Shown: in pieces, positions 42,578-62,402 of the stretch
Layout: each line of letters starts with the position of its first letter
Position numbering within the stretch: position 1 is the stretch's first letter
Source: an uncultured Bacteriovoracaceae bacterium
GTDB taxonomy: Bacteria > Bdellovibrionota > Bacteriovoracia > Bacteriovoracales > Bacteriovoracaceae
Direction of reading: 5' to 3'
Length of the DNA: 64,000 bases
Assembly (NCBI GenBank): GCA_964012805.1
Contig: CAXGUD010000006.1
Coordinates: 32,001-96,000 of the forward strand
Made by a program: the position numbers and the translations under genes
Notes under the pieces: generated by a model
Seen by the model: only the letters and a program-made list of their open reading frames with translations
Database searches by the model: none
What the model was told of the DNA's origin: nothing

Positions 42578-45500
42578 GTGAAGGCTTCTTTGCTTTTTTT
42601 TCAAATTTTTTTTGTAAAAAAGAAGGCCGCTTTTTTATGTGCCTTAATACTTTGTTTCTTTTTTCATGGTTCTGGCTTCGCTAATGATTTTTCTAAAAAA
42701 GAGAAAGAGTTTGAAAGAGGCATCCTCGACTTATCAAAAAGAAAGAATGATGGATTAAAAACAATTGACTTAAAGGGAGAATGGTCATTTTACTGGAATA
42801 AGTTTTTGGACCCAAAGTCTGTTCTTTCAGGTGCAATTCCCAAAGAAGACGGCTTTTTAAAAGTGCCAAGTTCCTGGAAAAAGAGTGAGTTTGGAAATGA
42901 ATTGATGGCACCAAAAGGTTTTGGCAGCTATCTTCTTCGTGTAAAAGGTGTCCCTCAAAAAATGGCCCTTTATTTTTATCCAGGGCGGGTTAAGCAAACA
43001 TCTAAAGTTTTTCTTATTCAAGGGGGGCGAGCGGACGTTATTTTTGAAGCTGGAATTCCTGGTAATAAAGTGGACAAAGAATTACCACAGCTTTTGTCAA
43101 CGAAGAAGCAAAAAGTCGTTTTAGAAAAAGGTGATTTCACTCTTTTGATTCACGCCTCGAACTTCGGATATAGAGATGGTGGGGTGGCGATAGCTCCAAG
43201 GTTTTACTCTAAATCCAATATTAAGATGGATTATTTTAAAATGTTCTCTTCAGGAATGCTTCTCATTATGGTGCTCTACCATTTTGGACTTTTCTTGAAA
43301 AGAAGAGGGGATAAGGCCGCTCTTTATTTTTCCTTGATCTGCCTTTTTATGTTTTTTAGGCATACGATTATAAATGACCACCAATACTTTTTTATGGCAC
43401 CTTCTTATTGGGCCCACCAAATATCAGTTAAGTTGGAGTTTTTGGGTCTTTCATTGACTCCTTTTCTTTTTGCAGGTTTTTTAAAAGAAATTTTTACGGG
43501 GAGTTTTCAAAAGTTTTTTAAAATTTCTTTTGTCTTTTCAATTCTTCTCTCTTTGATTGTTGTCGTTTTTCCCGCTTCTGTTTTTACTAAAATGCCTTTT
43601 CTTATTCCCATGCAAATAAATGCCTTAGGAACGATTTTATTTGGAATCATACGTTTTGTGATACTCCACTTTAAAAAAGATAAGTTTGCTGGTTATTGCT
43701 TAATTTCAATGGGGATTTGGTTTTTTACTGTATTAATGGATGTCTTAATCATTTTTAACGTAATTAATCTCGAAATTAAATTAACCCAATTTGGTTTTCT
43801 TTTTTGGATTTTATCCCAAAGTTATATCCTCTCGGTAAAGTTTTCAAATGCTTATGAAACAGCAGAGAGGCTTTCTAAAGATCTGCAAAAAGAAGTTAAA
43901 AAGCAGACCAAGCAAGCTCATGAAGCAAGAGAAAGAGCTGAAAAGTCTGAAAAAGAAGTCGCAGGCCTCATGGACAATATGAGGCAATCTGTTTTCTGTA
44001 TCGGTCGTGAGAAGGAGGTAATTGCACCTGTCTCTTTTTATTCTGAAACTCTTTTTGGTCAAAAAATTATAGGTAAGTCTATTTATGATGTTCTTTATAA
44101 GGGGATGGACCGAAGAAAAGAGTCCTTTGGTGGTCTTGAGATGGCCTTGTCGGTTATCTTTGGGGCTGACGACCTCCAATTTGACCTTTTAAAAGACCAA
44201 TTACCCACGAGGCTCATTGTAAATACAGAAAGTAAAAAAACAGAAAAGGGTGAAAATAAAGTTTTAAAGATTAGTAATAACCCGATTTTTGATAATGAGG
44301 GCAGCCTTTTAAAGCTTATGTATGTCGTAGAAGACATCTCGGATGTGGAGGCCCTTGAACAAAAAATGAAAGAACAGAAAGAGGAAGTTTCTAAAAAAGC
44401 CGGTGTAATTCAAGAACTCGCAGGAAATAAAAAAGAGGACCTTCAGAACTTTTTTGATGATAGTTACGAGCTTCTCCAACTCTCTATTGATGAATTAAAA
44501 AGAATGAGAAGCGAGCAACTTGAAGGAGAGTCAGGTCAAAAGTCTTTAGATATAATTTTTAGAAACTGCCATACTTTAAAAGGAAACTCTCGAATTTTTG
44601 GCCTTTCTCTTATTTCTAAAAAGTCCCACGAGGTAGAAGGTGTTTTAGAAGTTTTTCAAAAAGAAGAGGAGGTAAAAGATGTTTTAGAGAACTCCTTAAA
44701 ATCTCTTTATGATCTTAGGGGGCAGGTCTCCGAGTATTTTATGGTATCACGAGATCTTTTTGGAGTGGAATCTCAAGATGAAATACGCTTTAAAAATGAA
44801 ATACATGAACTTATGCTCGATTTTGAATATTGGATCGCTCAAATTTATTTCCAATCAAGAAATACTGGTTATGAACCTGAGGGGATAAAGGATTTATGGA
44901 AAAAGCTTGTTGACTTGGATGAAGATATAAGAGAGCAGATTCTTTCATCCTTAGTTAGAGTTTTACACGGTCTTAAAGGATTGAGTAGGGCCTTAAATTT
45001 AAAGTCTTTAAGTGAATCAATTCACCAATTGGAAGGTGTCATTTACGACTTTTCCCCAAGTATTGATAAAGAAGATGAGAGTACTCATGAACGATTGGAG
45101 TCAGCTTATAATGAGGTCATAAATTTGGCCAGGAACCTTTATTTAAAGTCAGTGGATTTTAAACCTCTCGTATTAGCCTCTGATCAGTGGACGGAGCTAA
45201 TTTCAGAATTTATTCAAATAGCTTCTTTATATTTTAATGGCAGATCTGAAGACCAAAAGTCCATAATAAATAGAATTTACCTTTTTAATACAAGGGCTTC
45301 CAACTTTAGATTTCATTTTTCCCCATCTATTATTAGGTCCGTGTATGATTTTTTTGGAGGGAGTTCAGACTCTGAAAAAAATAAGATAAAGAGGGCTTTT
45401 AATAGCATATGGCTTTATTTAAAGTGGATCATTCAAATTGATATTGAAAAAAGTGTAGATTTTCAATTAAGAGATACGCTTATCTCCTATTTTGATGAAG

Positions 45501-46639
45501 ATAAAGACCATTTGAAAAGAAGTGAGATCATAAAAAAGATCCGTTTGAGAAGCGATACTCAGAACGGTCCCATTCTTTTTACGATATTTGAAAAAATTAA
45601 TAATCAAGAAAATTTTCTTATGGAGGATTTTCTCCTTGTTTTAGAAAAATTAGAAGCCTCTGATGACAAAGACTTTAAAGGACGAGAATTGTTGGAAAGG
45701 TTAATACCAAAACAAGATTCGAAGTCGTCTTTAGGTGAACTTTTTCTTGGTCTAAAAAACCTTTTTAACTATGAAAACTTTGAGTTAATAACTTCCAACA
45801 ATCAAATTCAAGGAGAAAGCATAGAGACTTTAAAGGAAATCATTAATTCAAGACATTTAAATATTTTTCCTTATCTTCAAAGTTTAGATTTTATGAGAGT
45901 TTTAAGAAGTTATGTTTATTTGGATGAGGATAGTGAACAGAGTAGAAAACCAAATACAGTAGATGTTTTAATGGAGAATTTTGAAGGACTCAAATCTCAT
46001 CTAAAAGATAGATGGGATGATGGGGAGATACCTAACTGGGACGAAATGGATAAATTCTTAAAACATCTTGAAGACATACCAGTTAAGTATTCTTTAAGAA
46101 AGCTTGGTTCAATGGCAACAGAAATGGGTAAAGGTTTAGGTAAAAAGGTTAAGTTCGTTATGAAAGGTGATCAAGCTTCCCTACCTAAAGAAAAGTTAAC
46201 AATTTTAAAGGATGGAATTATACATTTGGTGAGAAACTCTATTGATCATGGTATTGAAGCACCAGAGATTCGAAAAAGTTTAGGTAAGGATGTTTTTGGA
46301 AAACTCGAGGTAACACTATCAAAAGAGAAATCAGGGGGGCTTTCATTAAGCATATCTGATGATGGTGGCGGTATCAAATTTGATAAAGTCTTAGATAAAG
46401 CCATTGAGCGCGGTATTATAAAGAACGCTGAAAAAGCAAGTTTAAGTTACCAAGACAAAGTCAATCTTATCTTTGAACCTCGACTAAGCACAAAAGAAAA
46501 ATTGACAGATATATCGGGAAGAGGAATTGGAATGGACGTCGTCAAGAAAAATATTAAAAGCCTTGGAGGTTCAATCGAGGTTATCACTGAGCTTAATAAA
46601 GGTACAAACTTTATTATACGTCTTGAAAAAATTGAATAA
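42578..46639 (+). CDS. 7TM-DISM sensor / double-Hpt / HATPase CheA-like kinase without a CheW domain
   Basis: LKGEWSFYW, TMs, FRNCHTLKG and VRVLHGLKG, HLVRNSIDHGIE, SGRGIGMD. Confidence 0.85.
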   Translation: MKASLLFFQIFFVKKKAAFLCALILCFFFHGSGFANDFSKKEKEFERGILDLSKRKNDGLKTIDLKGEWSFYWNKFLDPKSVLSGAIPKEDGFLKVPSSWKKSEFGNELMAPKGFGSYLLRVKGVPQKMALYFYPGRVKQTSKVFLIQGGRADVIFEAGIPGNKVDKELPQLLSTKKQKVVLEKGDFTLLIHASNFGYRDGGVAIAPRFYSKSNIKMDYFKMFSSGMLLIMVLYHFGLFLKRRGDKAALYFSLICLFMFFRHTIINDHQYFFMAPSYWAHQISVKLEFLGLSLTPFLFAGFLKEIFTGSFQKFFKISFVFSILLSLIVVVFPASVFTKMPFLIPMQINALGTILFGIIRFVILHFKKDKFAGYCLISMGIWFFTVLMDVLIIFNVINLEIKLTQFGFLFWILSQSYILSVKFSNAYETAERLSKDLQKEVKKQTKQAHEARERAEKSEKEVAGLMDNMRQSVFCIGREKEVIAPVSFYSETLFGQKIIGKSIYDVLYKGMDRRKESFGGLEMALSVIFGADDLQFDLLKDQLPTRLIVNTESKKTEKGENKVLKISNNPIFDNEGSLLKLMYVVEDISDVEALEQKMKEQKEEVSKKAGVIQELAGNKKEDLQNFFDDSYELLQLSIDELKRMRSEQLEGESGQKSLDIIFRNCHTLKGNSRIFGLSLISKKSHEVEGVLEVFQKEEEVKDVLENSLKSLYDLRGQVSEYFMVSRDLFGVESQDEIRFKNEIHELMLDFEYWIAQIYFQSRNTGYEPEGIKDLWKKLVDLDEDIREQILSSLVRVLHGLKGLSRALNLKSLSESIHQLEGVIYDFSPSIDKEDESTHERLESAYNEVINLARNLYLKSVDFKPLVLASDQWTELISEFIQIASLYFNGRSEDQKSIINRIYLFNTRASNFRFHFSPSIIRSVYDFFGGSSDSEKNKIKRAFNSIWLYLKWIIQIDIEKSVDFQLRDTLISYFDEDKDHLKRSEIIKKIRLRSDTQNGPILFTIFEKINNQENFLMEDFLLVLEKLEASDDKDFKGRELLERLIPKQDSKSSLGELFLGLKNLFNYENFELITSNNQIQGESIETLKEIINSRHLNIFPYLQSLDFMRVLRSYVYLDEDSEQSRKPNTVDVLMENFEGLKSHLKDRWDDGEIPNWDEMDKFLKHLEDIPVKYSLRKLGSMATEMGKGLGKKVKFVMKGDQASLPKEKLTILKDGIIHLVRNSIDHGIEAPEIRKSLGKDVFGKLEVTLSKEKSGGLSLSISDDGGGIKFDKVLDKAIERGIIKNAEKASLSYQDKVNLIFEPRLSTKEKLTDISGRGIGMDVVKKNIKSLGGSIEVITELNKGTNFIIRLEKIE

Positions 46640-48091: not shown

Positions 48092-48790
48092 TTAATTCTT
48101 ACTATCAGTCACAGCAGCAGCGTAAATGGCCATACCAAAGGCAATCTTGTTAACAAAGTCCGCTAGGTTATATACCAAATTCATTGTTCCAGCATCGGCC
48201 CCACTTCCTAGGTAACCGATGGCATAACCTATGGGATAGATTGCCCAACCAATAGTTACGATAAGCCTTAATGTATTAAATGCTTTTTGGCTAGAAGCAT
48301 TTCCGCTAGCGGCATTAACCTTACTAGCCTCTCCAGCGAAGATTTCGTAAATAATGTAAAGCCACCCTGCCATTCCTATGACAAAAGCAAGAGTTACATT
48401 CATTGCTTGGGTTTCTCCTAAATAACCCGCTACAAGCATTACTGTTGAGGAGACCAGCAGTCTCCAGAAAAGGCCTGATGCTACGGTCGTTACTGCAGCT
48501 AAGATCACATAAAATTCTACAATTTGAAGGGGGACAGTTATAAACCAATCGACATATCTAATTTCTGTTGGGGATTGTCCGCCAGTAAGCATCCATGCTT
48601 CTCTCATATAAAAATAATGCCAAGCTGCTATACCTGTTATCAAGCCTGCAATGGTCAGAGAAGTTTTCCACTTTTCTGAGACTCTGTCTCTTTCTAGAAA
48701 GAAGAAAGCTGTCGCCGCTACCATGGCCATGGAAATGACCCAAAAGGAAATAGCTACATGATCTCCTGATTTAAGAAGTAATTCTTTCAT
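48092..48790 (-). CDS. proteorhodopsin (DTE proton pump, Q105 blue-tuned)
   Basis: Seven TMs; RYVDWFITVPLQIVEF (D97, T101, Q105, E108 in GPR numbering); WHY (His75); ADFVNK retinal Lys; AGGAG RBS. Confidence 0.96.
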   Translation of the reverse strand: MKELLLKSGDHVAISFWVISMAMVAATAFFFLERDRVSEKWKTSLTIAGLITGIAAWHYFYMREAWMLTGGQSPTEIRYVDWFITVPLQIVEFYVILAAVTTVASGLFWRLLVSSTVMLVAGYLGETQAMNVTLAFVIGMAGWLYIIYEIFAGEASKVNAASGNASSQKAFNTLRLIVTIGWAIYPIGYAIGYLGSGADAGTMNLVYNLADFVNKIAFGMAIYAAAVTDSKN

Positions 48791-49785: not shown

Positions 49786-49847
49786 ATCTTCTCTTATGGT
49801 GCAGGATCTTTTTTACTCTTTATTTTACCATAAGGCGATTTTTTTCC

Positions 49848-50369
49848 CTATAAAACTCCCGGCTTAATGGGATAGGTTTTATCATTAATTTCAAGGATAT
49901 AGACGCCATCTTTTTCAAAGATAAAGTTAGTGATTTCAATATAGCATTTTCTTGAAAACCTGCCCTTAACTTTTCCCTTCAGCGCCATAAAATAAAGAAT
50001 ATTATTTGTGTCAATGCTAAGTGTTTTGGGGTTGAGGATCTCTTTAATACCTCCCCTAAAAATCAGTGTAACTGAGAGAATTTTACCTTCCTTACTTTTT
50101 ATAATATCCAACGAAGTGGTAACGAGAGGTGTATCAAGGCATGTGACGAAATTCTTTTCTCCCTGGCAGTAGACGACATATTGAGGGAGAGTTTTACCTT
50201 CAATTAGGGGAAAAGCATCTGAGTCATTTTCATCTACAGGTTTTAAATGGCGCAAAAAAAAGCTTATAGTCTTCTCATCTAAAAGAGGCCTTCCTTCAAA
50301 AAGGAGCTCTCCCTCTTCATTTATTTCGTAGTGGTAAACTCTTTTTGAAGGAGGTTTTTTTCTTTTCAT
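49848..50369 (-). CDS. hypothetical protein (DUF1285-like)
   Basis: INEEGELLFEG...FFLRHL...EKNFVTCLDTP pattern. Confidence 0.55.
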   Translation of the reverse strand: MKRKKPPSKRVYHYEINEEGELLFEGRPLLDEKTISFFLRHLKPVDENDSDAFPLIEGKTLPQYVVYCQGEKNFVTCLDTPLVTTSLDIIKSKEGKILSVTLIFRGGIKEILNPKTLSIDTNNILYFMALKGKVKGRFSRKCYIEITNFIFEKDGVYILEINDKTYPIKPGVL

Positions 50370-50480
50370 TTAATTAGAATACCTTATCTTTAGGGGACTT
50401 GAAAGTTACGATTATGATTTGGATTTTGGGTCATCAAAATTTTGTTATACTTAATTTTTAATTGATTAAAAAAAGTAAAC

Positions 50481-51458
50481 TCAACTTTTTTTATAAGAGT
50501 TTATAAACTTCTCTATCCCTTCCATTGTGTTGACTTTTGGTTGATAGCCTAGGATTTTTTTTGCCTTTTTAATATTTAAAGTTTGGGATTTTGCAAAGAG
50601 ATTACAAGTGTACCTCGTTAGGACTGGCTCTTTGTTGTTAAGAAAAAATTTGTGTACAATTTCACTTAAAAAGCAATAAGCATAAACAAAGTGGTAAGAT
50701 ATGAGCTTAGGGTCTCTTTTAAGACCCAATTGATTGAAAACGTGATCAATAATATACCAAAGTTTTTGTGGATTACCATCTGAAATATTAAAAATCTGTC
50801 CATTGGCAATGTCTTTTGAGAAAAGTGCACACCTAATGGCCTCAACGGCGTTATCTATATAAGTAAGGTCAGTTAGGTTGTTACCTTTTCCAATAGTCCT
50901 CAATCGTCCTTTATTATTGGCCCTTATTAACCTTGGGAAAATGGCCTCATCTCCGGGGCCAATAATGGCCCTAGGCCTTAGAATAATGGCGTTGGGAAAG
51001 TTTTCTAAAACACTTTTTTCGGCTTTAATTTTTGATTCAATATAATCATTGAGTGGTCTAGTGGTAATGGGGTCACTTTCCTTGATATCCAATAAATCTT
51101 TTGAGCTATGGTAAACACTAGGGCTAGAAATCAAAATAAACTTTTTAATTTTGTATTTTTGGGCCAATTGGGCGAGGTTTGAAGACGCTTTATAATTAAC
51201 CTCTAAAAAATCTTTTCTTTTTCCCCAAGGAGAAGATAAACCACCGCAATGAACAATATGGTCAAAGCCATTCACAATACTTTCCATTTTTTTATAATCA
51301 GTTAAATCGGCTTTTAAAAAGTGGACGCCTTTATTTAAAAGTTCCCTTCCTTTTTTTTCATTCCTTCCTAGGCCACTTAAATGATTAAAGTCTTTTTTTA
51401 AAATTTCACAGGTTCTCTGTCCTAAAAAACCAGTCGCTCCAGTAACTAAAACTTTCAT
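50481..51458 (-). CDS. NAD(P)-dependent 3-beta-HSD / OleD-like reductase
   Basis: TGATGFLG, SSPWG, SSPSVY, YIESK, LRPRAIIGPGD, TYIDN. Confidence 0.85.
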   Translation of the reverse strand: MKVLVTGATGFLGQRTCEILKKDFNHLSGLGRNEKKGRELLNKGVHFLKADLTDYKKMESIVNGFDHIVHCGGLSSPWGKRKDFLEVNYKASSNLAQLAQKYKIKKFILISSPSVYHSSKDLLDIKESDPITTRPLNDYIESKIKAEKSVLENFPNAIILRPRAIIGPGDEAIFPRLIRANNKGRLRTIGKGNNLTDLTYIDNAVEAIRCALFSKDIANGQIFNISDGNPQKLWYIIDHVFNQLGLKRDPKLISYHFVYAYCFLSEIVHKFFLNNKEPVLTRYTCNLFAKSQTLNIKKAKKILGYQPKVNTMEGIEKFINSYKKS

Positions 51459-51476
51459 TATTTATTCCTTAAAAAG

Positions 51477-53249
51477 TTAATTCTTTTTAATAAGAAAATT
51501 ATCAATAACCAAGTAGTCTAAATCCGTAGTAAGAAACGTTGTTAAGGCATCTTCTATAGAGTGAATAATAGGCCGTCCCATAACGTTAAGACTCGTGTTT
51601 ACCAAAATAGGTACTTTTGTTATTTGATAAAAATCTGAAATCAATTGGTGGTAAAGGGGATTTAACTCTTTATGCACAGATTGAAGCCTTCCACTTCCAT
51701 CTTTATGGACAACAGCTGGTACCAGTGACCTAACACTTTCTTTAAAGAAAAGGGCCTTTTCCATATAGGGGGTTTTAACATAATTTTTAAAATAATCTTG
51801 CCCAAATTCATGAAGAATCGAGGGGGCTATAGGCCTATAAAACTCTCTTCCTTTAATTCGTGAGTTAATTTTTTCCTTCATTTCTTTCTTTCTAGGATCC
51901 GCCAGTATGGAACGGTTTCCAAGGGCCCTTGGCCCAAATTCCGCCCTTCCCTGAACCCATCCTAAAATTTTTCCATTGGCCAAAAGGGTGGCCACCTTTT
52001 TAGTGAGTAAGTTTTTATTATCAAATTCTTGAAAATTAACTCCTCTGTAGTCTAAAATTTTTTTAAGGTAATCTATGTCTGGTTCGGACCCTAAATAGGG
52101 CGAGGAACCAAGAACTGGCCACTTTAAAGACCTTTTCATTTTATTAATATGATACTTTTGGTATAAAAGGGCACCCAAAGAGTTTCCATCATCACCTGGG
52201 GCAGAAGGTATGTGAATTTGATCAAACCCAGCCTCTTCCAAGATTCTTCCATTTGTTAAAGAATTAAGTGCGCAACCGCCTCCATAGGCTAGGTTCTTTT
52301 CACCAGTTTTCACTTGTAATTGGTTGGCCAATTCGATCACAGTATCTGAGAAGGCCTTTTGAAAGTTATAAGCAAGATCAGCGGATTTCAAAACGTCCTT
52401 ATCCGCCGGTTTTCTAAATCCGCCTACTATTTTATTGAGTTTTGCTTTGTCTCTAGGGCCAAAATTTGTTCTAAGTTTAATTCCCTTAACTTTCATTTTT
52501 TCTTTAAAAAAATAATAAATTTCTTGATTGAATTTTCCATAAGCACTGAGCCCCATAACTTTCCACTCTTCTCCATGCAGGCAGGAAAAACCGCAGCATT
52601 CTGTGACGGCCGCATAAAGATAACCCAAACTTGCCCTGCTTTTATAAATGAGTTTGAAGTTATTATTTTTAAAATGATAAAAAGAACAGGATATTTCTTC
52701 TCCTGCTCCATCGAGTATCATGACGGCACATTGATTAAAGGTGGATGTATAAACGGCATTGGCAGCATGGGTAAGGTGATGGGTTGTTTTTTTGTGAGAA
52801 ACTTTATGAAGATAATCCCCCCATAAAAACTTTCTTAATTGAAAAAGAACGACCGGTAAACCTTTTAAATACCAAGTTTGAGAATATCTTGCTAGGGCCG
52901 TAAATGACTGGCAATCATCAAATAAAAAAGGTCTTTTTTTATTAAAAAAGGCAACTCTTCTATAAATTGAGTTAAAAATTTTGGCAAGGCCTCTTATATA
53001 GAAGGGAGGTTTCCAGGTAGTTCTTAAGGTAAGTTCAACTGGATTTTCAATAGGAATTCCTCTTTCTTTTAAAGTTTTTTTTAGCCCTTTTAATGAATGG
53101 AGGTCTCCTACAGAAAAAAGAGACCGCTTATTTTGGGAAAGCCTTTCAAGTCCTTCAGCATAGATTTTATCTTTGTAGCAAACCGCTAAAGATGGGTCAT
53201 GAAAAGTATTGCTATGACCTATAATTACCTTATTAATTTCATATTTCAT
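51477..53249 (-). CDS. O-carbamoyltransferase (NodU/CmcH/TobZ family)
   Basis: HD, HHLTHA, DGAGE, KVMGLSAYG, GGCALN, EFGPRALGNRS, VHKDGSGRLQ, NTSLN. Confidence 0.93.
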   Translation of the reverse strand: MKYEINKVIIGHSNTFHDPSLAVCYKDKIYAEGLERLSQNKRSLFSVGDLHSLKGLKKTLKERGIPIENPVELTLRTTWKPPFYIRGLAKIFNSIYRRVAFFNKKRPFLFDDCQSFTALARYSQTWYLKGLPVVLFQLRKFLWGDYLHKVSHKKTTHHLTHAANAVYTSTFNQCAVMILDGAGEEISCSFYHFKNNNFKLIYKSRASLGYLYAAVTECCGFSCLHGEEWKVMGLSAYGKFNQEIYYFFKEKMKVKGIKLRTNFGPRDKAKLNKIVGGFRKPADKDVLKSADLAYNFQKAFSDTVIELANQLQVKTGEKNLAYGGGCALNSLTNGRILEEAGFDQIHIPSAPGDDGNSLGALLYQKYHINKMKRSLKWPVLGSSPYLGSEPDIDYLKKILDYRGVNFQEFDNKNLLTKKVATLLANGKILGWVQGRAEFGPRALGNRSILADPRKKEMKEKINSRIKGREFYRPIAPSILHEFGQDYFKNYVKTPYMEKALFFKESVRSLVPAVVHKDGSGRLQSVHKELNPLYHQLISDFYQITKVPILVNTSLNVMGRPIIHSIEDALTTFLTTDLDYLVIDNFLIKKN

Positions 53250-53286
53250 AAAATGGAGTCCCTTTAAAATTTTAAGATTTATCGGT

Positions 53287-53306
53287 AAGATTAAATTTTT
53301 AATCTT
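53287..53306. promoter_or_regulatory. palindrome in the divergent promoter region (possible operator)
   Basis: AAGATTAAA-TT-TTTAATCTT, a perfect 9-2-9 inverted repeat. Confidence 0.4.
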
Positions 53307-53338
53307 TGAAAAGAAGAATTTAAAAAAGGAATGGAAAA

Positions 53339-53596
53339 ATGGTGATTATCGGAAAAATATTCCTGTCAATCTTATGGGCAGTTTCTTTTACTTTTGTTTT
53401 AACCAATCTTTCAATTAATTTTTCTCCTTTTTTAAATGAAAACCTTGCTTCTTTACTTGTCATTTTTTTTATTATTCACCTAATTCAGTACTTTATTTTC
53501 GTTAAAAAACTAAGAAGGGAGCCTTTTAGGGGATACCATTTCTTTCAAATCTTATTTTTTGGAATGGTTCACGTAAGAGGATATAAAAAAGAATAG
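53339..53596 (+). CDS. small membrane protein (DUF1145-like)
   Basis: 85 aa, hydrophobic; IHLIQ and QILFFG motifs. Confidence 0.6.
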   Translation: MVIIGKIFLSILWAVSFTFVLTNLSINFSPFLNENLASLLVIFFIIHLIQYFIFVKKLRREPFRGYHFFQILFFGMVHVRGYKKE

Positions 53597-53707
53597 ATAT
53601 CAAAACCTACTAGAATTTTTTGCCTCTAATCTTTTATTTTTATCAATTAAAAAAAGTTAAAACTATTTTTTGCCGACCCTTTTCTAAATAGCAATCAAAG
53701 GAAAGTT

Positions 53708-54754
53708 ATGAAAATCGAAGCTGTGGCTTTGTCACTTCCTGAGCGGCAAATCTCTAATGATGATATCCTAGATTATATAAGAGAAAAAAGTAAAAACTCT
53801 TATAAGGGAGATTTAGAAAAATCTCTTCGGGAGGTAAAGTTTTTTCTTGGTCTTTGTGGTGCCCAAAATAGAAGGTGGGCGGCTCCCGGAGAAAACACGT
53901 TTAAAAAGCATACCGAAAAAGCCATTTTAGAGGTTTTAGAAAAGAGCAATACTCATCCGGAAGAAATTGATCTTCTGATTTATTCAAGTGTTGATAGGAA
54001 AGTTGCAGAGCCAAACGAAAGCTATCTACTAGCAAAAGCTTTAGGTTTGAAGAAAACCGAATGTTTTGACATTTTAGAAGCCTGTAATAGTTGGTCCAGG
54101 GCCACTCAAATTTCTCAAAGTTTATTAAAATCACCAGATTATAGAAAAGTCTTAGTTGTGACTGCTGAATACATGATTCATGAAGGAATGTGGGGACAGA
54201 ATGCCTTTCACGTAAAGTCTCCAGAAGAATTTGAATGGAAGTTCCCATCATATACATTAGGGGAAGGATCAACAGCCACTCTTCTCTCAAATGAAGGTGA
54301 AGATTGGAATTATAAATTCTTGGGAATGCCTGAGCATGCTGATTTGTGTATATGCCCTCTCGAAAATTTTAATGAACAAGAAACAAATATGAATGGTGTA
54401 AGTGTTGCTATGAATGGGAAAGGGGTATTTACTTCTTTTGGTAGAAAAATGGAGGTCCCAGGTAAAAAGGCCCTCATTGATATTTTAGATTCTTCAGCTG
54501 TTCCCCTCAAAGATATTGATATAATTTTCCCTCATTCTCACGCTAAAAAGGTTTGGAGTGATATTTCAAAGGAAGAAGAGTTAAATCTTCCGTTGTATTT
54601 TATTTTTCCAGAAACAGGAAACCTTGTGACAGGTTCAATTCCTGGAGCCATGAGTATGGCAATTGAGGAAAATGCGTTGAAAAGAAAAGACCTTGTAGCA
54701 GGCTGGATGGCCGCTGCCGGTATGTCCTTCTCTATGTACACTTTTAATTATTAA
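53708..54754 (+). CDS. KAS III / OleA-like condensing enzyme
   Basis: SSVDRKVAEP, FDILEAC (Cys126), TLGEG, PHSH, GNLVTGS. Confidence 0.85.
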   Translation: MKIEAVALSLPERQISNDDILDYIREKSKNSYKGDLEKSLREVKFFLGLCGAQNRRWAAPGENTFKKHTEKAILEVLEKSNTHPEEIDLLIYSSVDRKVAEPNESYLLAKALGLKKTECFDILEACNSWSRATQISQSLLKSPDYRKVLVVTAEYMIHEGMWGQNAFHVKSPEEFEWKFPSYTLGEGSTATLLSNEGEDWNYKFLGMPEHADLCICPLENFNEQETNMNGVSVAMNGKGVFTSFGRKMEVPGKKALIDILDSSAVPLKDIDIIFPHSHAKKVWSDISKEEELNLPLYFIFPETGNLVTGSIPGAMSMAIEENALKRKDLVAGWMAAAGMSFSMYTFNY

Positions 54755-54770
54755 CGATTAAGGGCTTGAA

Positions 54771-56117
54771 TTGGAAAATATAAACCTTGTAAAAATAAGA
54801 CCCTTTTGGAAAACAAGATCATCTATAAATGATCCTTTGTCTTTTTTTGAGGAAATTGATAAAAAAGGCGAGTTTTGTCATTATAAAGGGTTCCTCTCTT
54901 TTACCTATGTGGGTAATCCAAAATTAGTTAAACAGGTGCTGGATAAAACGGGAACTAATTATAATAAAGAAAACCCTCTTTATGACAGATTTAGATTCAT
55001 ACTAGGTCAGGGGATGCTAACGAGTGAGGGGAAAAATTGGAGGGATCAGAAAAAGTCTTTTTCTCCTTTCTTTTCCAAAAATAATATTAGTAAATTTCTT
55101 CCTATAATTTTTAGAAATATGTCCCAAACATTAGATATTTGGAACAAATATGCAGAAAAAGAGGTTGCTCTTAACCTTTCTGAAGAGTTCTTTAACCTAA
55201 CACTTAAAATTATAGGTGAAATTATTTTAAGCGATGACTTAAAAGAACATCTTCTGGAAATAAGAAAGATAACAAAAGTTTTTAATGAGTATGTTGCCTC
55301 TCCTCCCATTCCTATTTTTTCTTCATCAAAAATCCCAACTCCCCTTAATTTGAAAGTTAAAAAAGCGAGGGACGGTTTTATAGATATTTTAAAAAAAATT
55401 ATTGAAAAAAGAATGTCAACTAAACAGAAAAGAGAAGACCTCTTACAAATAATACTTGATAAGAACCCAGATAAAATTACTCCTTTAATTCTTGATCAAA
55501 TACTAAGCCTTATTATTGCTGGTCATGAAACGACTTCAAATGCACTTGTTTGGACTTTTTTTCACCTCTCCAAAAACACCTCTGAAAAAGATAAAATTCA
55601 AAAACTTTTAGATAGAGAGATTAAAGGTCTTTTTCCTTCTTTTAAAGAATTAGAACTCTTAGATTACTTAAGGCAAATTATAAATGAGTCTCTTAGACTA
55701 TCACCGCCCGTATGGCTTATAACGAGAAAGTCGATAAAAGAAAATATTTTAGGTGGACACAAAATTAAGCCTGGTCAAATGATTGTTTTTTCGCCCTACT
55801 TTATTCACAGAAATGAAAAGTATTGGAAAAATGCTGCTGATTTTAGACCTGATCGTTTTGATAAAAATAAAAAAATAGAAAAAGATGCTTTCTTGCCTTT
55901 TGGCTTAGGCCCACACACTTGTATAGGCTCAAATCTTTCTATGATGCAAATGAGTCTTTTTTTAAGTGTCTTATTAAAGTCATTTGACTGGTCTTGTATA
56001 GGATCTTTCCCAAAACCCTTTCTATCCTTCACAATGGGTGTGAAAGATGGACCTATGGTTATTTTAAAAAAGAGAAAAAGAGTAAAAAGTGTTTTTCCTG
56101 AAAAAATAACAATTTAA
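54771..56117 (+). CDS. cytochrome P450
   Basis: AGHETT, ESLR, FRPDRF, FGLGPHTCIG heme Cys. Confidence 0.95.
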   Translation: MENINLVKIRPFWKTRSSINDPLSFFEEIDKKGEFCHYKGFLSFTYVGNPKLVKQVLDKTGTNYNKENPLYDRFRFILGQGMLTSEGKNWRDQKKSFSPFFSKNNISKFLPIIFRNMSQTLDIWNKYAEKEVALNLSEEFFNLTLKIIGEIILSDDLKEHLLEIRKITKVFNEYVASPPIPIFSSSKIPTPLNLKVKKARDGFIDILKKIIEKRMSTKQKREDLLQIILDKNPDKITPLILDQILSLIIAGHETTSNALVWTFFHLSKNTSEKDKIQKLLDREIKGLFPSFKELELLDYLRQIINESLRLSPPVWLITRKSIKENILGGHKIKPGQMIVFSPYFIHRNEKYWKNAADFRPDRFDKNKKIEKDAFLPFGLGPHTCIGSNLSMMQMSLFLSVLLKSFDWSCIGSFPKPFLSFTMGVKDGPMVILKKRKRVKSVFPEKITI

Positions 56118-56133
56118 CGGAGCTATAAGTTAA

Positions 56134-57270
56134 ATGAAAAAAGACTTGATTAAAAATACCTGGAATCTTTTTTTAATTTTAATGAACCCTAAAAGATTAT
56201 CTTTTAATGGAATGCCAACGGCGTATCCTAAAACAAGTAAATGGAACCTTTTTCAATGGTGGGCCTGCTTTTTAACAAGGCATTATTTTGGTAAAAATTT
56301 GTTAATTAAAACTCAGAAAAAAGTTGAAAACAAAATCCTTAAGGATTATAAAAAGCATGGTAAACCAAAAGGGTATATTACACCACCTCGTTTTAAAGCA
56401 AGCGAAATTGATTCAGAAAAATTCAAAGAGATTGCCATTAAGACAAATTCACCAGTTATTATTGAGGGTTTTGCAAAAGATTGGGATTGTACAAAAAAAT
56501 GGTCACCTCAGTTTTTAAAGGAAAACTATAAAGATGAAGTCGTCCCTGTTAGGCGTGAAAGTGACAGACTAGATTCTGAAGGCTATATTTATGTTAATAG
56601 GACTTTAAGTGAGCTAGTTGACAACATTGAAAGTGGAGGTGTTCTTCAGGGGACTCTCTTAGAAAATATTTTCAATAATAATCCTGAACTTAGAGAAGAT
56701 CTTAATATCCCTAAGATTGAAGAGTATTGTTGTCTTACAAAAAGACAAGAGCTTCAATCAACTCAATTATTTATTACTGGTAAAAATGGTAGAACTGGTC
56801 TCCATTGTGCTTCAGGAATCAACTTTTTTATTAATGTTTATGGCCATAAAAAGTGGACCTTTGTTCACCCTCACCATACGATAGGGTGTTATCCAGACGT
56901 TAGAGAAGATATGTTTTATTCAAATAGCGCACTTGATTATTGGAAGTCTGACGAAGAACTGGAAAAGGAGGGATATACCCTTTGGCCTTATATTCCAAAA
57001 TATAAATTTACGCTTTCCCCAGGCGACGTTGTCCTGTCACCACAGTGGTGGTGGCATGCTGTCGACAATGAAGACACAACCATAGCTGTTGCCAACAGAA
57101 CTTTTAATAAACTATTAATGGGTAATAAAATTTTTGCTTTTTTAAACTTTTTCTCACCGACCTCTTTAAGATGTTATTATCGTTTTTTAAAAACTGGGTG
57201 GGGATCTGATGATTCAATAATTGAAGTTTGTGAACATAATGGAAGAGAAGCAGTAGGAAAAGGAAAATAA
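56134..57270 (+). CDS. JmjC / cupin_8 Fe(II)-2OG oxygenase-family protein with an H-x-A...H motif
   Basis: PVIIEG..DW..KKWS, TGLHCASGINFF, GHKKW, PGDVV..PQWWWHAV. Confidence 0.85.
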   Translation: MKKDLIKNTWNLFLILMNPKRLSFNGMPTAYPKTSKWNLFQWWACFLTRHYFGKNLLIKTQKKVENKILKDYKKHGKPKGYITPPRFKASEIDSEKFKEIAIKTNSPVIIEGFAKDWDCTKKWSPQFLKENYKDEVVPVRRESDRLDSEGYIYVNRTLSELVDNIESGGVLQGTLLENIFNNNPELREDLNIPKIEEYCCLTKRQELQSTQLFITGKNGRTGLHCASGINFFINVYGHKKWTFVHPHHTIGCYPDVREDMFYSNSALDYWKSDEELEKEGYTLWPYIPKYKFTLSPGDVVLSPQWWWHAVDNEDTTIAVANRTFNKLLMGNKIFAFLNFFSPTSLRCYYRFLKTGWGSDDSIIEVCEHNGREAVGKGK

Positions 57271-57301
57271 ATAGGAATTACTAATCAACAAGGAAGTCTA
57301 C

Positions 57302-58114
57302 ATGGTATTAAAAAATTTAATGAAGGTGTCTCTATTAAGTTTTACATTAACCTCAAGTCTTTATGGGGCTATGAGTGACTTTAAAAATAAGTCAGGAAAA
57401 CAGATCGCTGAAATGTTAGAGAAAAAAAACCTAGTTTATAAAACAGAAACTTATGATTTAGAATTGAAATATTATCACGATGATAATAATCCTTTTAAAA
57501 TAGTAAAAGGAAAGGCCATTACACAAGAAACTGCCGGTGGAAAAGGTCAAGGAAAGGCCATGGTTACTTTAAATGACAAAACGAAAGTTTATGTTGAAAC
57601 TAGAAACGGTAAAGAAGATATTCACATGATTAAATTTCCGGGATCAAAAAGAAGTGTTTCTTTTTCTTGGAAAAATAGTAATTTTAGTAAATCTTCTAAA
57701 TTCTTAGGAAGTGAAGCGAGTGTTGAAGATCTTACTTGTCATATCCTATCAAATTATAAACACAAATTTAGAAAGTTTTCTCAGGGTGGAAAAGTGGCGA
57801 TCCTGGAATTTACTCCAAAAAGGAAAAGCTACTACACATCAAAAGTTTACTACATTGATACAGACAAGTTTGTTCCTATTGAAATTATTTACTATAAAGG
57901 AAGTACAAAGCTTAAATCAATGGCCGTAAAGGAATACAAAAAATATAAAGTTCCAGGAAGTAGTAAAACGGTATACCGCCCTCATAGATTAGAAATGAAA
58001 AATAATGAGTATCTAAGGAAAAACAAAAAAACACTAGAAACCCATATGGTTATTTCTAATAGAGTACTTAATGGAAAAGTGAACTCTTCAGACCTAAACC
58101 CTAATAAAATGTAA
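57302..58114 (+). CDS. LolA-like 'outer membrane lipoprotein-sorting protein'
   Basis: Signal peptide; FLGSEASVEDL, YTSKVYYID; lies next to an MMPL gene. Confidence 0.7.
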   Translation: MVLKNLMKVSLLSFTLTSSLYGAMSDFKNKSGKQIAEMLEKKNLVYKTETYDLELKYYHDDNNPFKIVKGKAITQETAGGKGQGKAMVTLNDKTKVYVETRNGKEDIHMIKFPGSKRSVSFSWKNSNFSKSSKFLGSEASVEDLTCHILSNYKHKFRKFSQGGKVAILEFTPKRKSYYTSKVYYIDTDKFVPIEIIYYKGSTKLKSMAVKEYKKYKVPGSSKTVYRPHRLEMKNNEYLRKNKKTLETHMVISNRVLNGKVNSSDLNPNKM

Positions 58115-58123
58115 AAAGATTAA

Positions 58124-60427
58124 ATGGTAAAGTGGGGAGTATGGATGAAGAATTTCAATATCTTTAAAATACTCCCTACCTTTCTTATAAAATCAAATAA
58201 AATTTTATTTACTTTTTCCCTCCTAACCGTTTTTATTTTCAGTTTAGGGGTTTTTTCATTAAAAAAAGACATTTCTCATCGTATCTGGTTTAAAAAGGGA
58301 GACCCCTTTTTAAATAAATATGACTCCTTTATTGAAAATTATGGAAATGATGACCTCTTAGTTATTATTTTAGAAAATGAAAAAGGTCTTTTTACACCAA
58401 GTTATGCTAAAGAATTGTATCTTCTTACAAAAAAATTAGAAAATGTCCCTCTTGTTCTAAGAGCGGAGTCAATGGCCAACGTTTTGTTTTCCACCCATAG
58501 ACCTCTAGATCATTCTAATTATAAATCCTCTCATATTCATTTTGATCATTTCTTTCCAGACCTAAAGTCTTTAGACAGCGCCTTTTTGGAAGAACGTAAA
58601 AAGAAACTAAATATTGTTAAAAATTTCAGGGACTTTTATTTAAGCTCAAACTTTAAAACCTCCATCATTTATTTATATTTAAAGAAGGTTAACCCTCCCG
58701 ATTACCAACTGACATTAAAAAAAACAAAGGAAATTCTTAAAGCGACTCTATCGAAAGAAACACGTTTTTTTATGACGGGAAATTCTGTTTTGGCCGAAGC
58801 TTATAAAAAAGCTCCCGTTGATGATATGAAACTAATTATGCCTCTCGGCCTTTTTATCCTTATTACTTTACTTTTTTTTATATTTAGAAATTTCCTCGGC
58901 GTTTTCATACCGCTAGGCCACTTATTTCTTTTAATTTTTGCCCTTTTAGGAATTCAGGGGCATTTAAAAATGACTATGAACAGTGTGACTTCCATGGCCC
59001 CACTTATTTTGATGGCCATAGGTTTGCTTGATTCTATTCATCTCTTAACCACTTATTACAAATCAAGGATGAAAAAAAGTCGTCTTTGGGCCCTTTTGTG
59101 CGCTATTAAAATTAATATTTTCCCAACTTTTTTAACGTCATTTACTACCGCCATAGGTTTTTTTGCTCTTTCAACATCTAAAATAGCGCCTATATCAAAT
59201 TTGGGAACAATATGTGGCATAGGAGTTTTATTGGCGTGGCCTTTAACTTATTTTTTTATTCCTTTTGTTTTACTTAAATTCTCAAAAAAATCTAAACCAA
59301 AAAACATTATTCCTTTTAAGGCCAAGCTTTTCCTTCATTTAATTAAAAACAAGAAAAAAATTTTTTTATCGAGTTCTTTCATTCTTATCCTTTTGGGGGG
59401 GGGCTTTGCTTTTCAAAATGAAGTTAATTCGGATTTTGAAAATTATTTCCCAGAGAAAACCCCTTTTAGAGTGGCCAATCAAAAATTGGAAAAAAACATT
59501 GGTGGATCTTCAACAATCCATCTTCTTATTCAAAACGAAGATGTTAGAAATCCTAAATTTTTAAAAAAAATTGAAGATTTAACTTTAAAATTAGAAGATT
59601 TGAAAGGGGTAACAAAAGTTTTTTCACTTCTAGATATAATCAAAAATTCAAGACAACTTCTTTTTGAAAATGACGAAAAATATAACTCCCTTCCACCTGA
59701 TAAAGAGCAAATTAAGGAATCCCTCTTTTTTTATCAATTATATGAAATGGAAGGCAAAGAACTATACCGGTATGCTAAAAGAGATTTTAGTGAGATGAAA
59801 ATCACTCTCTTTTGGAAAGGTTTCAGCTCCAAAGAAATTAAAAGAGGGGTGAGAGAAATAGAGAAATTATTAAAATATTATAATTTAAAAGGGAGTCTTA
59901 ATGGTAAGGTCCTTTTTATGAAAGGCTTGGATTCTTATATATTAAAAACGTTTCTTATGTCCCTTATTTTAACTATAACTTGCCTTACCCTCTTAATGAT
60001 GATCCTTTTTAAATCATTTAGAATAGGTCTTTTTGCCATGGTTCCAAATGTCATTCCATTAACCTTAGGTGTGGCGGCTTTGGGTCTTTTTGGAAAAGGG
60101 CTTGATGTTTCTGCCGTTTTAATAGGCTCTATTAGCTTAGGTATTTCCGTGGATGACACCATCTTTTTCATGTCCCATTATTATAGAAAAACCAAAAAGT
60201 TCGAAAACCATTTGAAGGCGATCGAAGAAACGATTAAGGAAACAGGACACACGCTTTATATTACAACAATTACTTTAGCCTCTATAATTGGCCTTTTCAC
60301 TTTGGGTTCTTTTGGCCCCAATAAAGTCTTTGGTTTTATGACCTCCTTTATCCTTATTTGCGCCTTTCTTTTTGACTTAACACTACTTCCAATTCTTTTA
60401 TTAAAAAAAAGGGATTATCAGACGTAA
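58124..60427 (+). CDS. MMPL/RND-family exporter
   Basis: Two repeats of TM + loop + 5 TM; IGLLDSIH and GISVDDTIF motifs; TSFTTAIGF. Confidence 0.9.
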   Translation: MVKWGVWMKNFNIFKILPTFLIKSNKILFTFSLLTVFIFSLGVFSLKKDISHRIWFKKGDPFLNKYDSFIENYGNDDLLVIILENEKGLFTPSYAKELYLLTKKLENVPLVLRAESMANVLFSTHRPLDHSNYKSSHIHFDHFFPDLKSLDSAFLEERKKKLNIVKNFRDFYLSSNFKTSIIYLYLKKVNPPDYQLTLKKTKEILKATLSKETRFFMTGNSVLAEAYKKAPVDDMKLIMPLGLFILITLLFFIFRNFLGVFIPLGHLFLLIFALLGIQGHLKMTMNSVTSMAPLILMAIGLLDSIHLLTTYYKSRMKKSRLWALLCAIKINIFPTFLTSFTTAIGFFALSTSKIAPISNLGTICGIGVLLAWPLTYFFIPFVLLKFSKKSKPKNIIPFKAKLFLHLIKNKKKIFLSSSFILILLGGGFAFQNEVNSDFENYFPEKTPFRVANQKLEKNIGGSSTIHLLIQNEDVRNPKFLKKIEDLTLKLEDLKGVTKVFSLLDIIKNSRQLLFENDEKYNSLPPDKEQIKESLFFYQLYEMEGKELYRYAKRDFSEMKITLFWKGFSSKEIKRGVREIEKLLKYYNLKGSLNGKVLFMKGLDSYILKTFLMSLILTITCLTLLMMILFKSFRIGLFAMVPNVIPLTLGVAALGLFGKGLDVSAVLIGSISLGISVDDTIFFMSHYYRKTKKFENHLKAIEETIKETGHTLYITTITLASIIGLFTLGSFGPNKVFGFMTSFILICAFLFDLTLLPILLLKKRDYQT

Positions 60428-60803
60428 GATAATGTAAGGGAAAACATCTTAATGAGAAATGATTTTAACTTCTTGTTTAAGTTATCTAAAAATTTTTTGA
60501 TATTCAATTAATTGAAGAAAGGTTTACAAATTTAAATGAATCATTTGCAATTGGTTATAGGTGGATTGATTTTTCAAATACCTATAAGAAATCAAAGCTT
60601 TTAACTTCGCTCCATATATTTAATACAAACCCAAATATTTTTTGGACTATTTTAAACCAAAAAGCCGACTATATTAAGCTTTTAGCGTATGCAAATGGAT
60701 CCTACCGCTCTGTGAGAAAAGCCGAGAAAGTCGATGGTTAAAGAAAAAAAAGAATACAAAAATTTATTATTCAATTCAAAAAAAAAGTCTAGATTTTTAT
60801 ATA

Positions 60804-61184
60804 CTAGTCTAAAGCGTATTCTATTTTAAGTATGGCGTATTCTTTACCTTCAGCTTTGAGATTAGAACTTGAGGAGGTTATATTTTTTTTTGTAGGATCA
60901 AAGTTTTTGTTATCGTATTCATACATTGGCTTTTTATCCAAATCAAGGAATGAAACCTTTTTTATCCAGCATTTTTTATCTTTATCACAATTAGATTTAA
61001 AAATAGCTGATACACCATTTTTTAATTGATCTATATCTTCTGAATATAATGCGGTTCCTAATGAAGGTGTGTAACTTTCATTAACTGTTTCAATTAAGGC
61101 CTTTCTCTGCATTTTAATATTAGGGTCAGTAGAGTTGCAGCTTAAGCTTAAGATAAGGATCATTAGTAATGACCAAAGTTTCAT
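60804..61184 (-). CDS. hypothetical lipoprotein
   Basis: Signal peptide with lipobox LSLSC. Confidence 0.7.
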   Translation of the reverse strand: MKLWSLLMILILSLSCNSTDPNIKMQRKALIETVNESYTPSLGTALYSEDIDQLKNGVSAIFKSNCDKDKKCWIKKVSFLDLDKKPMYEYDNKNFDPTKKNITSSSSNLKAEGKEYAILKIEYALD

Positions 61185-61406
61185 TTACTTTCCCTTCTCA
61201 AAAAATAATTCCTTAATTACTATAGAGGTTTGAGTTTATGAATTCAACAATTTTGATAAAATTCGTGGGTTATGAAAACTTACAACACTCCCTAGAAATA
61301 AATCTAGTTTTTTTTATTTTCCTTTAAATTAAAGATTTCTATTCCTAGACAATATGCCTTGAAATTAGAGAAGCTATTATAAAAAGAAATATTTGGGGAG
61401 GGGTAA

Positions 61407-62402
61407 ATGGAATATAGATATTTAGGGAAGTCGGGTTTAAAAGTAAGTTCCCTTTCTTTTGGCTCTTGGGTTACTTTTTCCAACCAAGTTCAAACAGAAA
61501 GTGCCGTTGAAATGATGGCCATGAGCTATGATGCCGGAATTAACTTTTTTGATAACGCTGAAGTTTATGCTGATGGTGAATCAGAAGTAATCATGGGCGA
61601 TGCCCTTCAAAAGCTAGGCTGGGCGAGGGACACTTATTGTGTTTCAAGTAAGGTTTTTTGGGGAGGTCCGAAACCAACTCAAAGAGGCCTTTCTAGAAAG
61701 CATGTGAAAGAAGCATGCCATCAAGCTTTAAAAAGGCTCAAGGTTGATTACCTAGACCTCTACTTTTGTCATAGGCCGGATCAGGATACACCGATTGAAG
61801 AAACGGTTAGGGCCATGGACCAATTAATCCAAGAAGGAAAGGTTCTCTATTGGGGAACTTCAGAGTGGTCGGCAACAGAAATTCAAAAAGCTTATGGTGT
61901 TGCCAGAGAATACAACCTGACTCCTCCTACCATGGAGCAACCCCAGTACAATTTATTTCACAGGGAAAAAGTTGAAAAAGATTTTTTACCACTTTATGAA
62001 GAGGTTGGCCTTGGAACAACGATCTGGTCTCCTTTAGCGAGTGGAATTCTCACAGGTAAGTACTCTAATGGCATTCCTGATGGGAGCCGGGCCAGCTTAA
62101 GTGGTTTTGAGTGGATCAAGGATCAAATTTTATCTCCCAAGGGGCAAGATAAGGTAAAAAAGGCAAAACAATTGGAAGTAATCGCAAAAGAATTAGGTTG
62201 TAGTTTAACTCAGCTTTCTGTTGCCTGGTGTCTTAAAAGTCCTTTTGTTAGCACTGTTATTTTAGGAGCAAGCAAGGCCAGTCAGCTTTCAGAAACGATT
62301 GAGGCCTTAGAATTTCTTCCCAAATTAACGGATGATATTATGGAAAAAATAGAAGGGATTGTAGAGTCTAAGCCTAAACCAGTTATTGACTGGAAAGGTT
62401 AG
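61407..62402 (+). CDS. aldo/keto reductase (Kv-beta-like)
   Basis: LGKSGLKVS, FDNAEVY, HRPD, YWGTSEW, EQPQYN, WSPLASG. Confidence 0.93.
   Translation: MEYRYLGKSGLKVSSLSFGSWVTFSNQVQTESAVEMMAMSYDAGINFFDNAEVYADGESEVIMGDALQKLGWARDTYCVSSKVFWGGPKPTQRGLSRKHVKEACHQALKRLKVDYLDLYFCHRPDQDTPIEETVRAMDQLIQEGKVLYWGTSEWSATEIQKAYGVAREYNLTPPTMEQPQYNLFHREKVEKDFLPLYEEVGLGTTIWSPLASGILTGKYSNGIPDGSRASLSGFEWIKDQILSPKGQDKVKKAKQLEVIAKELGCSLTQLSVAWCLKSPFVSTVILGASKASQLSETIEALEFLPKLTDDIMEKIEGIVESKPKPVIDWKG

Follow-up and report, generated by a model that had tools for sequence, protein, structure and literature searches.

A two-histidine Cupin_8 oxygenase of the OocP/Arz family that likely chlorinates a fatty acyl chain in a KSIII gene cassette

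Gene content of the KSIII cassette

The window (the whole 64,000-nucleotide stretch analyzed) encodes at 56134..57270, on the forward strand, a Cupin_8/JmjC-fold Fe(II)/2-oxoglutarate enzyme of the OocP/Arz family. The 378-aa reading frame has no internal stops, and its product matched the Pfam families Cupin_8 (E 4e-25) and JmjC (E 4e-6), both above the cut-off. The gene lies in a tight forward-strand run composed of a KSIII-type condensing enzyme (53708..54754; Cys, His, and Asn retained), a cytochrome P450 that ends 16 bases upstream of the oxygenase (54771..56117), the oxygenase itself, a LolA-like outer-membrane lipoprotein-sorting protein (57302..58114; PF17131, E 3e-15), and an MMPL/RND exporter (58124..60427), with successive gaps of 16, 16, 31, and 9 bases. 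An 85-aa hydrophobic ORF on the same strand (53339..53596) had no Pfam match and resembles the small gene of another KSIII cassette, L125 (29% over 75 aa, pairwise E 6e-6). Two genes occupy the opposite strand: a NodU-like carbamoyltransferase divergent from the KSIII operon (51477..53249) and an OleD-like or 3-beta-HSD-like reductase (50481..51458), for which the best NCBIfam match was OleD at 190 bits against a cut-off of 580. Scanning positions 49800-61500 for promoters and terminators revealed no excess over shuffled sequences (39 vs 39.6 and 6 vs 8.9, respectively). Elsewhere in the window are a microbial rhodopsin gene (48092-48790, reverse strand; PF01036, E 9e-48) and forward-strand genes for two large membrane proteins (37819-40575 and 42578-46639) with C-terminal segments that by eye resemble CheA kinases; several N-termini similar to those of the two proteins are encoded elsewhere in the genome.

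Downstream of the exporter gene, at 60493..60735 on the forward strand, a remnant (69% identity over 81 aa) preserves only the 3′ end of another Cupin_8 gene. Two same-genus genomes have this gene intact, with the motif His-Asn-Gly, and in one of them it occupies the equivalent place after the MMPL gene. The cassette formerly held two carboxylate-less oxygenases or had one swapped for another. When the relatives were searched for orthologues of the oxygenase, 7 of 61 genomes gave a match, its own genome counted, and the three good ones were paralogues of 27-31% identity. The two same-genus genomes are only ∼70% complete, so they may carry an orthologue in their missing parts.

The cassette shares features with OleA/OleC/OleD-type head-to-head condensation, namely the OleD-like reductase and a KSIII in which a Glu-Pro aligns with the Glu-Pro of an OleA-like protein from the same genome; some homologues of this KSIII are labelled acyl-CoA:acyl-CoA alkyltransferase by one source. 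It differs from the Ole pathway in having no OleB or OleC and in the addition of the P450, the carbamoyltransferase, and the oxygenase. All of its NCBIfam Ole scores were below the cut-off and the OleA-OleB-OleC-OleD set is absent, so the likeness is a resemblance only. A comparable locus from a Flavobacteriaceae genome (L019) combines the same KSIII type (35%) and a P450 (32%) with an OleC-like ligase, an OleD-like reductase, an oxygenase, and a glycosyltransferase. Four more loci with this KSIII type were obtained from 3 of 401 Pseudomonadales genomes (L125-L128); the KSIII is accompanied by OleC/OleD-like genes in L125, which like L019 thus has the additional OleC-like ligase, by LolA-like and MMPL genes in L127 and L128, and by neither in L126. 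No oxygenase gene was found within 11-18 kb of the KSIII at these four loci, three of the four stretches reaching a contig end, which points to the oxygenase being an accessory gene. This distribution would fit an enzyme that tailors the KSIII lipid product in some cassettes only. A metagenome scan using the KSIII returned only two near-identical loci. The query genome also contains, on contig C5, a separate oleABCD-like run (102512-110239, assigned by sequence and BLAST) that is preceded by genes for a ketosynthase, a carrier protein, and an FAD-dependent oxidoreductase.

Loss of the iron-binding carboxylate across the family

The sequence-only reading had aligned a His-Cys-Ala triplet of the oxygenase with the H-x-D iron motif of related hydroxylases, Ala taking the place of Asp, and a phmmer alignment to JMJD5 confirmed this placement. 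The segment LHCASGINFF aligned with LHQDPQQNFL of JMJD5, so that Ala226 in His224-Cys225-Ala226 (codons CAT TGT GCT, 56803..56811, forward strand) falls on the iron-binding Asp and His224 is the first iron ligand. The same reading held that the distal His and the 2-oxoglutarate-binding Lys region were kept, and both residues are where it had put them. His308 (57055..57057, forward strand), the predicted distal iron ligand, is His in all but ∼0.5% of 236 family rows. Lys239 (56848..56850, forward strand) is spaced from the first His as in JMJD5 and FIH, and it and Asn230 are in register with the equivalent residues of both proteins; its predicted role in binding 2-oxoglutarate is one that we take from FIH Lys214. 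The predicted model (mean pLDDT 83) is a double-stranded beta-helix that superposes on JMJD5 and FIH, with residues 224-226 on a beta-strand. The H-x-D/E…H facial triad of FIH/JMJD5-type hydroxylases is absent, Ala226 being at the carboxylate position with no conserved substitute acid, and to judge by the residues present, the oxygenase possesses the 2-His/1-Gly-or-Ala metal site of the Fe(II)/2OG radical halogenases.

The unusual motif is not a sequencing or assembly error since a relative with 89.5% nucleotide identity has it too, although 93 of its 379 codons differ silently and 17 are changed, and since two RNA-library contigs from a close strain span the motif codons unchanged. All 9 of the 9 differences between these contigs and the oxygenase gene are silent. 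The contigs derive from one marine sample and overlap the oxygenase and LolA-like genes in part; they cannot show transcription or rank the genes, and the regions that they miss are uninformative. The pattern of substitutions indicates that the oxygenase gene is under purifying selection. A private mutation at Ala226, like a sequencing error, is ruled out by these relatives together with the loss of Asp/Glu throughout the family.

That loss was evident in every sample of the family. Among 18 close homologues, position 226 was Ala in 12, Thr in five, and Ser in one, with Asp/Glu in 0 of 18, and 59 complete motifs from 52 genome loci comprised 41 Ala, 17 Thr, and 1 Ser, again without Asp/Glu (0/59); these loci were found by a pattern around the distal His that favors close kin, and two motif-less fragments were excluded. 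A wider set was taken from the best 150 of 1890 matches in a 50%-identity library, of which 147 were scorable, both His being aligned and three fragments dropped. These rows held Ala (129), Gly (5), Glu (5), Asp (4), Thr (2), Ser (1), and Asn (1), so that Ala/Gly occurred in 134/147 and Asp/Glu in 9/147; both His, Asn230, and Lys239 were almost invariant. Pooling all family sequences (n=236, redundant and with the query included) gave Ala in 185/236 and Asp/Glu in 10/236. The comparison group consisted of 28 lower-scoring Nostocaceae Cupin_8 proteins, picked by score and not by motif, and had Asp at the equivalent position in 28/28. By these alignments, carboxylate loss at position 226 is a family trait that is not private to this oxygenase.

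Two further positions set the family apart from these H-x-D controls. Position 322, on the last core strand, is Arg in the query (57097..57099, forward strand) and in 225/236 family rows vs Trp in 25/28 controls, and thus serves as a family marker in place of the Trp of ordinary H-x-D relatives. Position 320 is mostly Ala, Ser, or Gly in the 236 rows, with Ala in the query, vs Asn in 23/28 controls. Three positions around the predicted iron site have therefore changed together relative to the controls, judging from the alignment. The family proteins are also longer, with a median of 366 aa vs 291 aa. Arg322 was considered as a halogenase marker and was dropped; the Asp/Glu-bearing members among the best 150 of 1890 matches retain Arg or Lys there (9/9), and the residue is thus no predictor of halogenation.

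A third protein ligand could give the site a different metal geometry and chemistry, and the sequence-only reading had suggested Cys225 for this role; another residue, such as Gln211, might also serve. Cys225 does not vary among the 19 closest sequences and occurs in 168/236 rows, and Gln, Glu, His, or Asn occupies position 211 in 220/236. The remaining 68 rows, however, have Ala (28), Ser (14), Asn (9), or other residues at position 225, and the orthologues of OocP, which share Gln211, have Gln there, so this variability makes Cys225 an improbable iron ligand. The model argues in the same direction in that position 225 of a beta-strand would be expected to point away from positions 224 and 226. 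A single acid, Asp298, is conserved throughout the family, and the controls retain it to the same degree. Neither Asp298 nor Cys225 thus looks like a substitute ligand, and we regard a replacement ligand as very unlikely.

A missing metal ligand may be the sign of a pseudoenzyme, and the absent carboxylate is what would favor the idea that the oxygenase has lost catalysis and become a lipid- or metal-binding protein. We consider this highly improbable given the near invariance of both His, Asn230, and Lys239 and the signature of purifying selection; moreover, OocP is active with these same ligands.

OocP and the Arz enzymes as relatives

When the family profile was compared with the PDB, the top match was chain A of entry 8A82 (8A82_A; OocP, motif H-Q-G) with an E of 7.7e-44, vs 7.9e-31 for JMJD5. 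This entry bears the title "Fe(II)/aKG-dependent halogenase OocPQ", and its OocP subunit is UniProt K7WEY7 (Pfam PF13621). Foldseek gave 8A82 the highest query-normalised TM-score (0.68) among the rows listed, but by E-value placed it only 14th, after JMJD5 and other JmjC structures. Superposition of the predicted model on 8A82 aligned 318 residues (Z 28.1, rmsd 3.1), and that on JMJD5 aligned 233 residues (Z 28.7, rmsd 1.9); the Z scores are tied, whereas the coverage is not. The best solved relative by profile and whole-chain coverage is the halogenase OocP.

OocP and its helper OocQ are reported to chlorinate the growing oocydin chain of a trans-AT PKS (PMC11260071), and another account describes OocP as having a cupin-like domain and its deletion as abolishing bioactivity (PMC4552970). 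The query shares with OocP the Cupin_8 fold, including N- and C-terminal helices beyond the JMJD5 core, the pair of His with a small residue in place of the carboxylate (H-C-A in the query, H-Q-G in OocP), and Gln211, Lys239, and Arg322. It differs in having Ala rather than Asn at position 320 and in its genetic setting. OocP is reported to require OocQ and to act within a PKS module, whereas no gene for OocQ, a PKS, or a carrier was found in the query cassette. Consistent with this, tblastn with three OocQ-like proteins (E 0.1) found no OocQ homologue in the query genome, and carrier domains gave 0 matches on the query contig and six elsewhere in the genome. These absences set the query apart from OocP itself, but not from the family at large. 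By comparison, JMJD5, FIH, TYW5, JMJD7, and the bacterial H-x-D Cupin_8 hydroxylases share the core fold, the first His, the Asn, the Lys, and the distal His with the query, but they are shorter and have Asp where the query has Ala226; the bacterial controls in addition mostly have Asn320 and Trp322 where the query has Ala and Arg.

Four OocP orthologues were recovered from 401 enterobacterial genomes, each in the gene order PKS, carrier protein, OocP, small partner, PKS, and the query is 26% identical to them over 245 aa. In a FastTree phylogeny (234 columns) rooted on the controls, 229 of the 236 family rows, the query, and the four orthologues formed one clade (support 0.937) that contained 0/28 H-x-D controls; the seven family rows outside it were three with H-x-D and four with H-x-A. 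The query belongs to a subclade of 37 members (support 0.999) in a first tree, whose outgroup was poor and had one member inside the family, and of 39 rows (support 0.902) in the tree with the 28 controls. OocP is on another branch of the clade, outside this subclade. Thr replaces Ala at position 226 in 23 of the 37 subclade members of the first tree, and Ser does so in two.

Halogenases of this fold are already documented. The atlas of Kipouros and Chang (2026), in which predicted structures were mined for 2-His/Ala-or-Gly sites, places OocP (K7WEY7, PF13621) in its cluster 2 and uses it as a known halogenase in an internal check (PMC13489965). The same cluster includes ArzC, D, F, G, I, and J, annotated JmjC (IPR003347) and Cupin_8, and entries from Phormidesmis priestleyi (355 aa), Enhygromyxa salina (386 aa), Gimesia sp. 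(454 aa), Xenorhabdus budapestensis (355 aa), and Photorhabdus luminescens (355 aa) (PMC13489965). Five of our loci (L021, L041, L046, L032, and L035, respectively) correspond to the latter entries by organism and length, as the atlas gives them, and not by sequence. The six Arz enzymes are described as the likely source of six chlorinated positions on the aranazole fatty chain (PMC10088813), and FshK of the fischerazole cluster is given as a 70% homologue of ArzI (PMC13548996). Like the query, the Arz enzymes and FshK are annotated JmjC and Cupin_8 (PF13621); they are reported as grouped with OocP in the atlas and are tied in the literature to fatty acyl chain chlorination, an assignment made in these accounts by correlation and not by assay. 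They differ in belonging to carrier-dependent NRPS/PKS clusters, this comparison with the query being by annotation, not by sequence; the six-gene Arz cluster was not recovered among 389 Nostocaceae genomes with five candidates scored per genome. SyrB2, WelO5, BesD, AspX, and BtnX have in common with the query the 2-His/1-Gly-or-Ala site and, as presented in the atlas, the proposed halide-transfer mechanism (PMC13489965), but they are of other cupin families and none was among the PDB rows listed for the query.

The statement in the sequence-only reading that no characterised halogenase was known in the JmjC branch does not stand, given that the literature presents OocP (PDB 8A82, PF13621) as an Fe(II)/alpha-ketoglutarate halogenase and that six Arz enzymes carry JmjC/Cupin_8 annotations. 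A claim to the first halogenase in this branch fails for the same reasons, OocP having been solved and the family being part of the 2026 atlas. Publications pairing JmjC with halogenase included no item on the OocP/Arz family by title or by the start of the abstract, which shows only that the family is not called a JmjC halogenase in print. On the alignments and tree above, the halogenase-type site is real and conserved, and the oxygenase is a further member of the OocP/Arz family and not a first.

Proposed function and settings of the family

We propose that this two-His OocP/Arz (Cupin_8) enzyme likely chlorinates an unactivated carbon of the fatty acyl chain handled by the KSIII cassette, and we assign a probability of roughly 0.6 to its acting on an acyl chain as a radical chlorinase. 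That the site is of the halogenase type, a reading first made from the motif, gains support from the family-wide loss of Asp/Glu, the lack of a conserved replacement acid, and the identity of the nearest solved relative as a halogenase. The motif, fold, family membership, and gene neighborhood are direct observations, and we infer halide binding, substrate, and product from the known mechanism and the neighboring genes. By the known mechanism of radical halogenases, Fe(II) would be held by His224, His308, and 2-oxoglutarate, and chloride would occupy the place vacated by Ala226. Reaction with O2 would then generate a chloro-ferryl species that abstracts a hydrogen atom, and the chlorine would pass to the carbon radical of the substrate. 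More tentatively, the neighboring genes suggest that the KSIII may join two acyl units, that the OleD-like enzyme could reduce the 3-oxo group, that the carbamoyltransferase and P450 might decorate the product, and that the LolA-like/MMPL pair may export it. Because neither a carrier protein nor OocQ was found in the cassette, the enzyme would be expected to act on an acyl-CoA, on an acyl chain borne by a housekeeping carrier, or on the condensation product in free form.

Several findings weigh against halogenation. The identity to the OocP orthologues is only 26%, with OocP on another branch of the clade, Asp/Glu does occur in the 10 family rows counted above, and an H-C-A relative is found in a squalene-cyclase/P450 cluster. 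Gene neighborhoods point both ways. In favor of the proposal, BLAST detected at least one acyl-handling gene (ketosynthase, acyl-AMP ligase, carrier protein, KSIII, or FeeM-type) at 30 of 52 family loci, and L019 repeats the combination of KSIII, P450, and OleD-like genes with the oxygenase; against it, the other 22 loci, many of which are short, showed none of the acyl-handling genes tested, and the oxygenase was not seen at the four further KSIII loci. In addition, swapping Asp to Ala or Gly alone is reported to have initially failed to create halogenases (bioRxiv 2023.05.25.542349).

The oxygenase might instead be a two-His hydroxylase, desaturase, or other oxidase that introduces oxygen or a double bond into its acyl or lipid substrate, the third site being filled by water, substrate, or a chloride that is not transferred. 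AspH is reported to show no halogenation with chloride and the D201G variant of FIH to be catalytically viable (PMC6817910), from which it follows that two His alone do not make a halogenase, and the atlas authors describe a class of two-His hydroxylases that they discarded as false positives (PMC13489965). The large Thr-bearing sister group (23/37) fits such an oxidase, as reported halogenases all have Gly or Ala at the carboxylate position according to the atlas (PMC13489965). So does the very wide occurrence of the family, which extends to giant viruses and a triterpenoid cluster. To our knowledge, the OocP/Arz family is spread more widely than the chlorinated products known. On the other side, halogenases are the only family members found with a described function, the prevalence of Ala (185/236 rows) fits selection for an open site, and the cassette already has a P450. 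We judge a two-His oxidase to be possible, yet distinctly less probable than chlorination.

Beyond family membership, the points that stand out are the seemingly carrier-free KSIII setting and the split between Ala and Thr. Chlorination of a free or CoA-bound lipid, if true, would extend an assembly-line family to a compact cassette of ∼10 kb, small enough to be expressed as a unit, and could provide a partner-free biocatalyst for the chlorination of unactivated carbons. The Ala and Thr sister groups would form a natural pair for asking what decides between halogenation and hydroxylation. More speculatively, and with considerable doubt, the oxygenase may be a carrier- and OocQ-free JmjC-fold radical halogenase acting on a head-to-head (OleA-like) lipid, with the marine bacterium exporting an undescribed chlorinated, carbamoylated lipid and with the Thr sister group representing a halogenase or oxidase type that is missed by Ala/Gly mining.

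Other settings of the family were noted in the locus collection. The H-x-Thr sister group (L002, L003, L005-L013, and L015-L017, from Pseudomonas, Nostoc, Microcystis, and others), which an Ala/Gly motif filter would overlook, is part of a conserved gene neighborhood that also encodes a ThiF-like enzyme, a tryptophanase-like PLP lyase, a FeeM-type N-acyl synthase, a GST, and a MAPEG protein, often along with LolA-like/MMPL genes. Loci L022-L026, L028, L031, L032, L035, and L051, from Xenorhabdus, Photorhabdus, Aquimarina, Ketobacter, and others, share a recurring order of PKS, small unknown protein, carrier protein, H-C-A oxygenase, and PKS, an oocydin-like layout with a different small partner. 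Four loci from Myxococcota and unclassified sources (L040, L047, L049, and L050) have two to three H-x-A paralogues adjoining an acyl-AMP ligase/carrier/reductase/AurF-like fusion and a sulfotransferase; together these genes are a candidate route to a sulfated lipid bearing several chlorines. H-C-A members with the conserved Arg are also encoded by 10 of 11 viral loci (L070-L079), several of which come from giant-virus assemblies. On plasmid NZ_LR882940.1 of Planktothrix agardhii, an H-C-A member (L129, 8463-9566) is located between a squalene-cyclase-like gene and P450 genes in a cluster that also includes squalene/phytoene synthase and Rieske proteins, and a Nostocaceae member (L093) has a similar motif.
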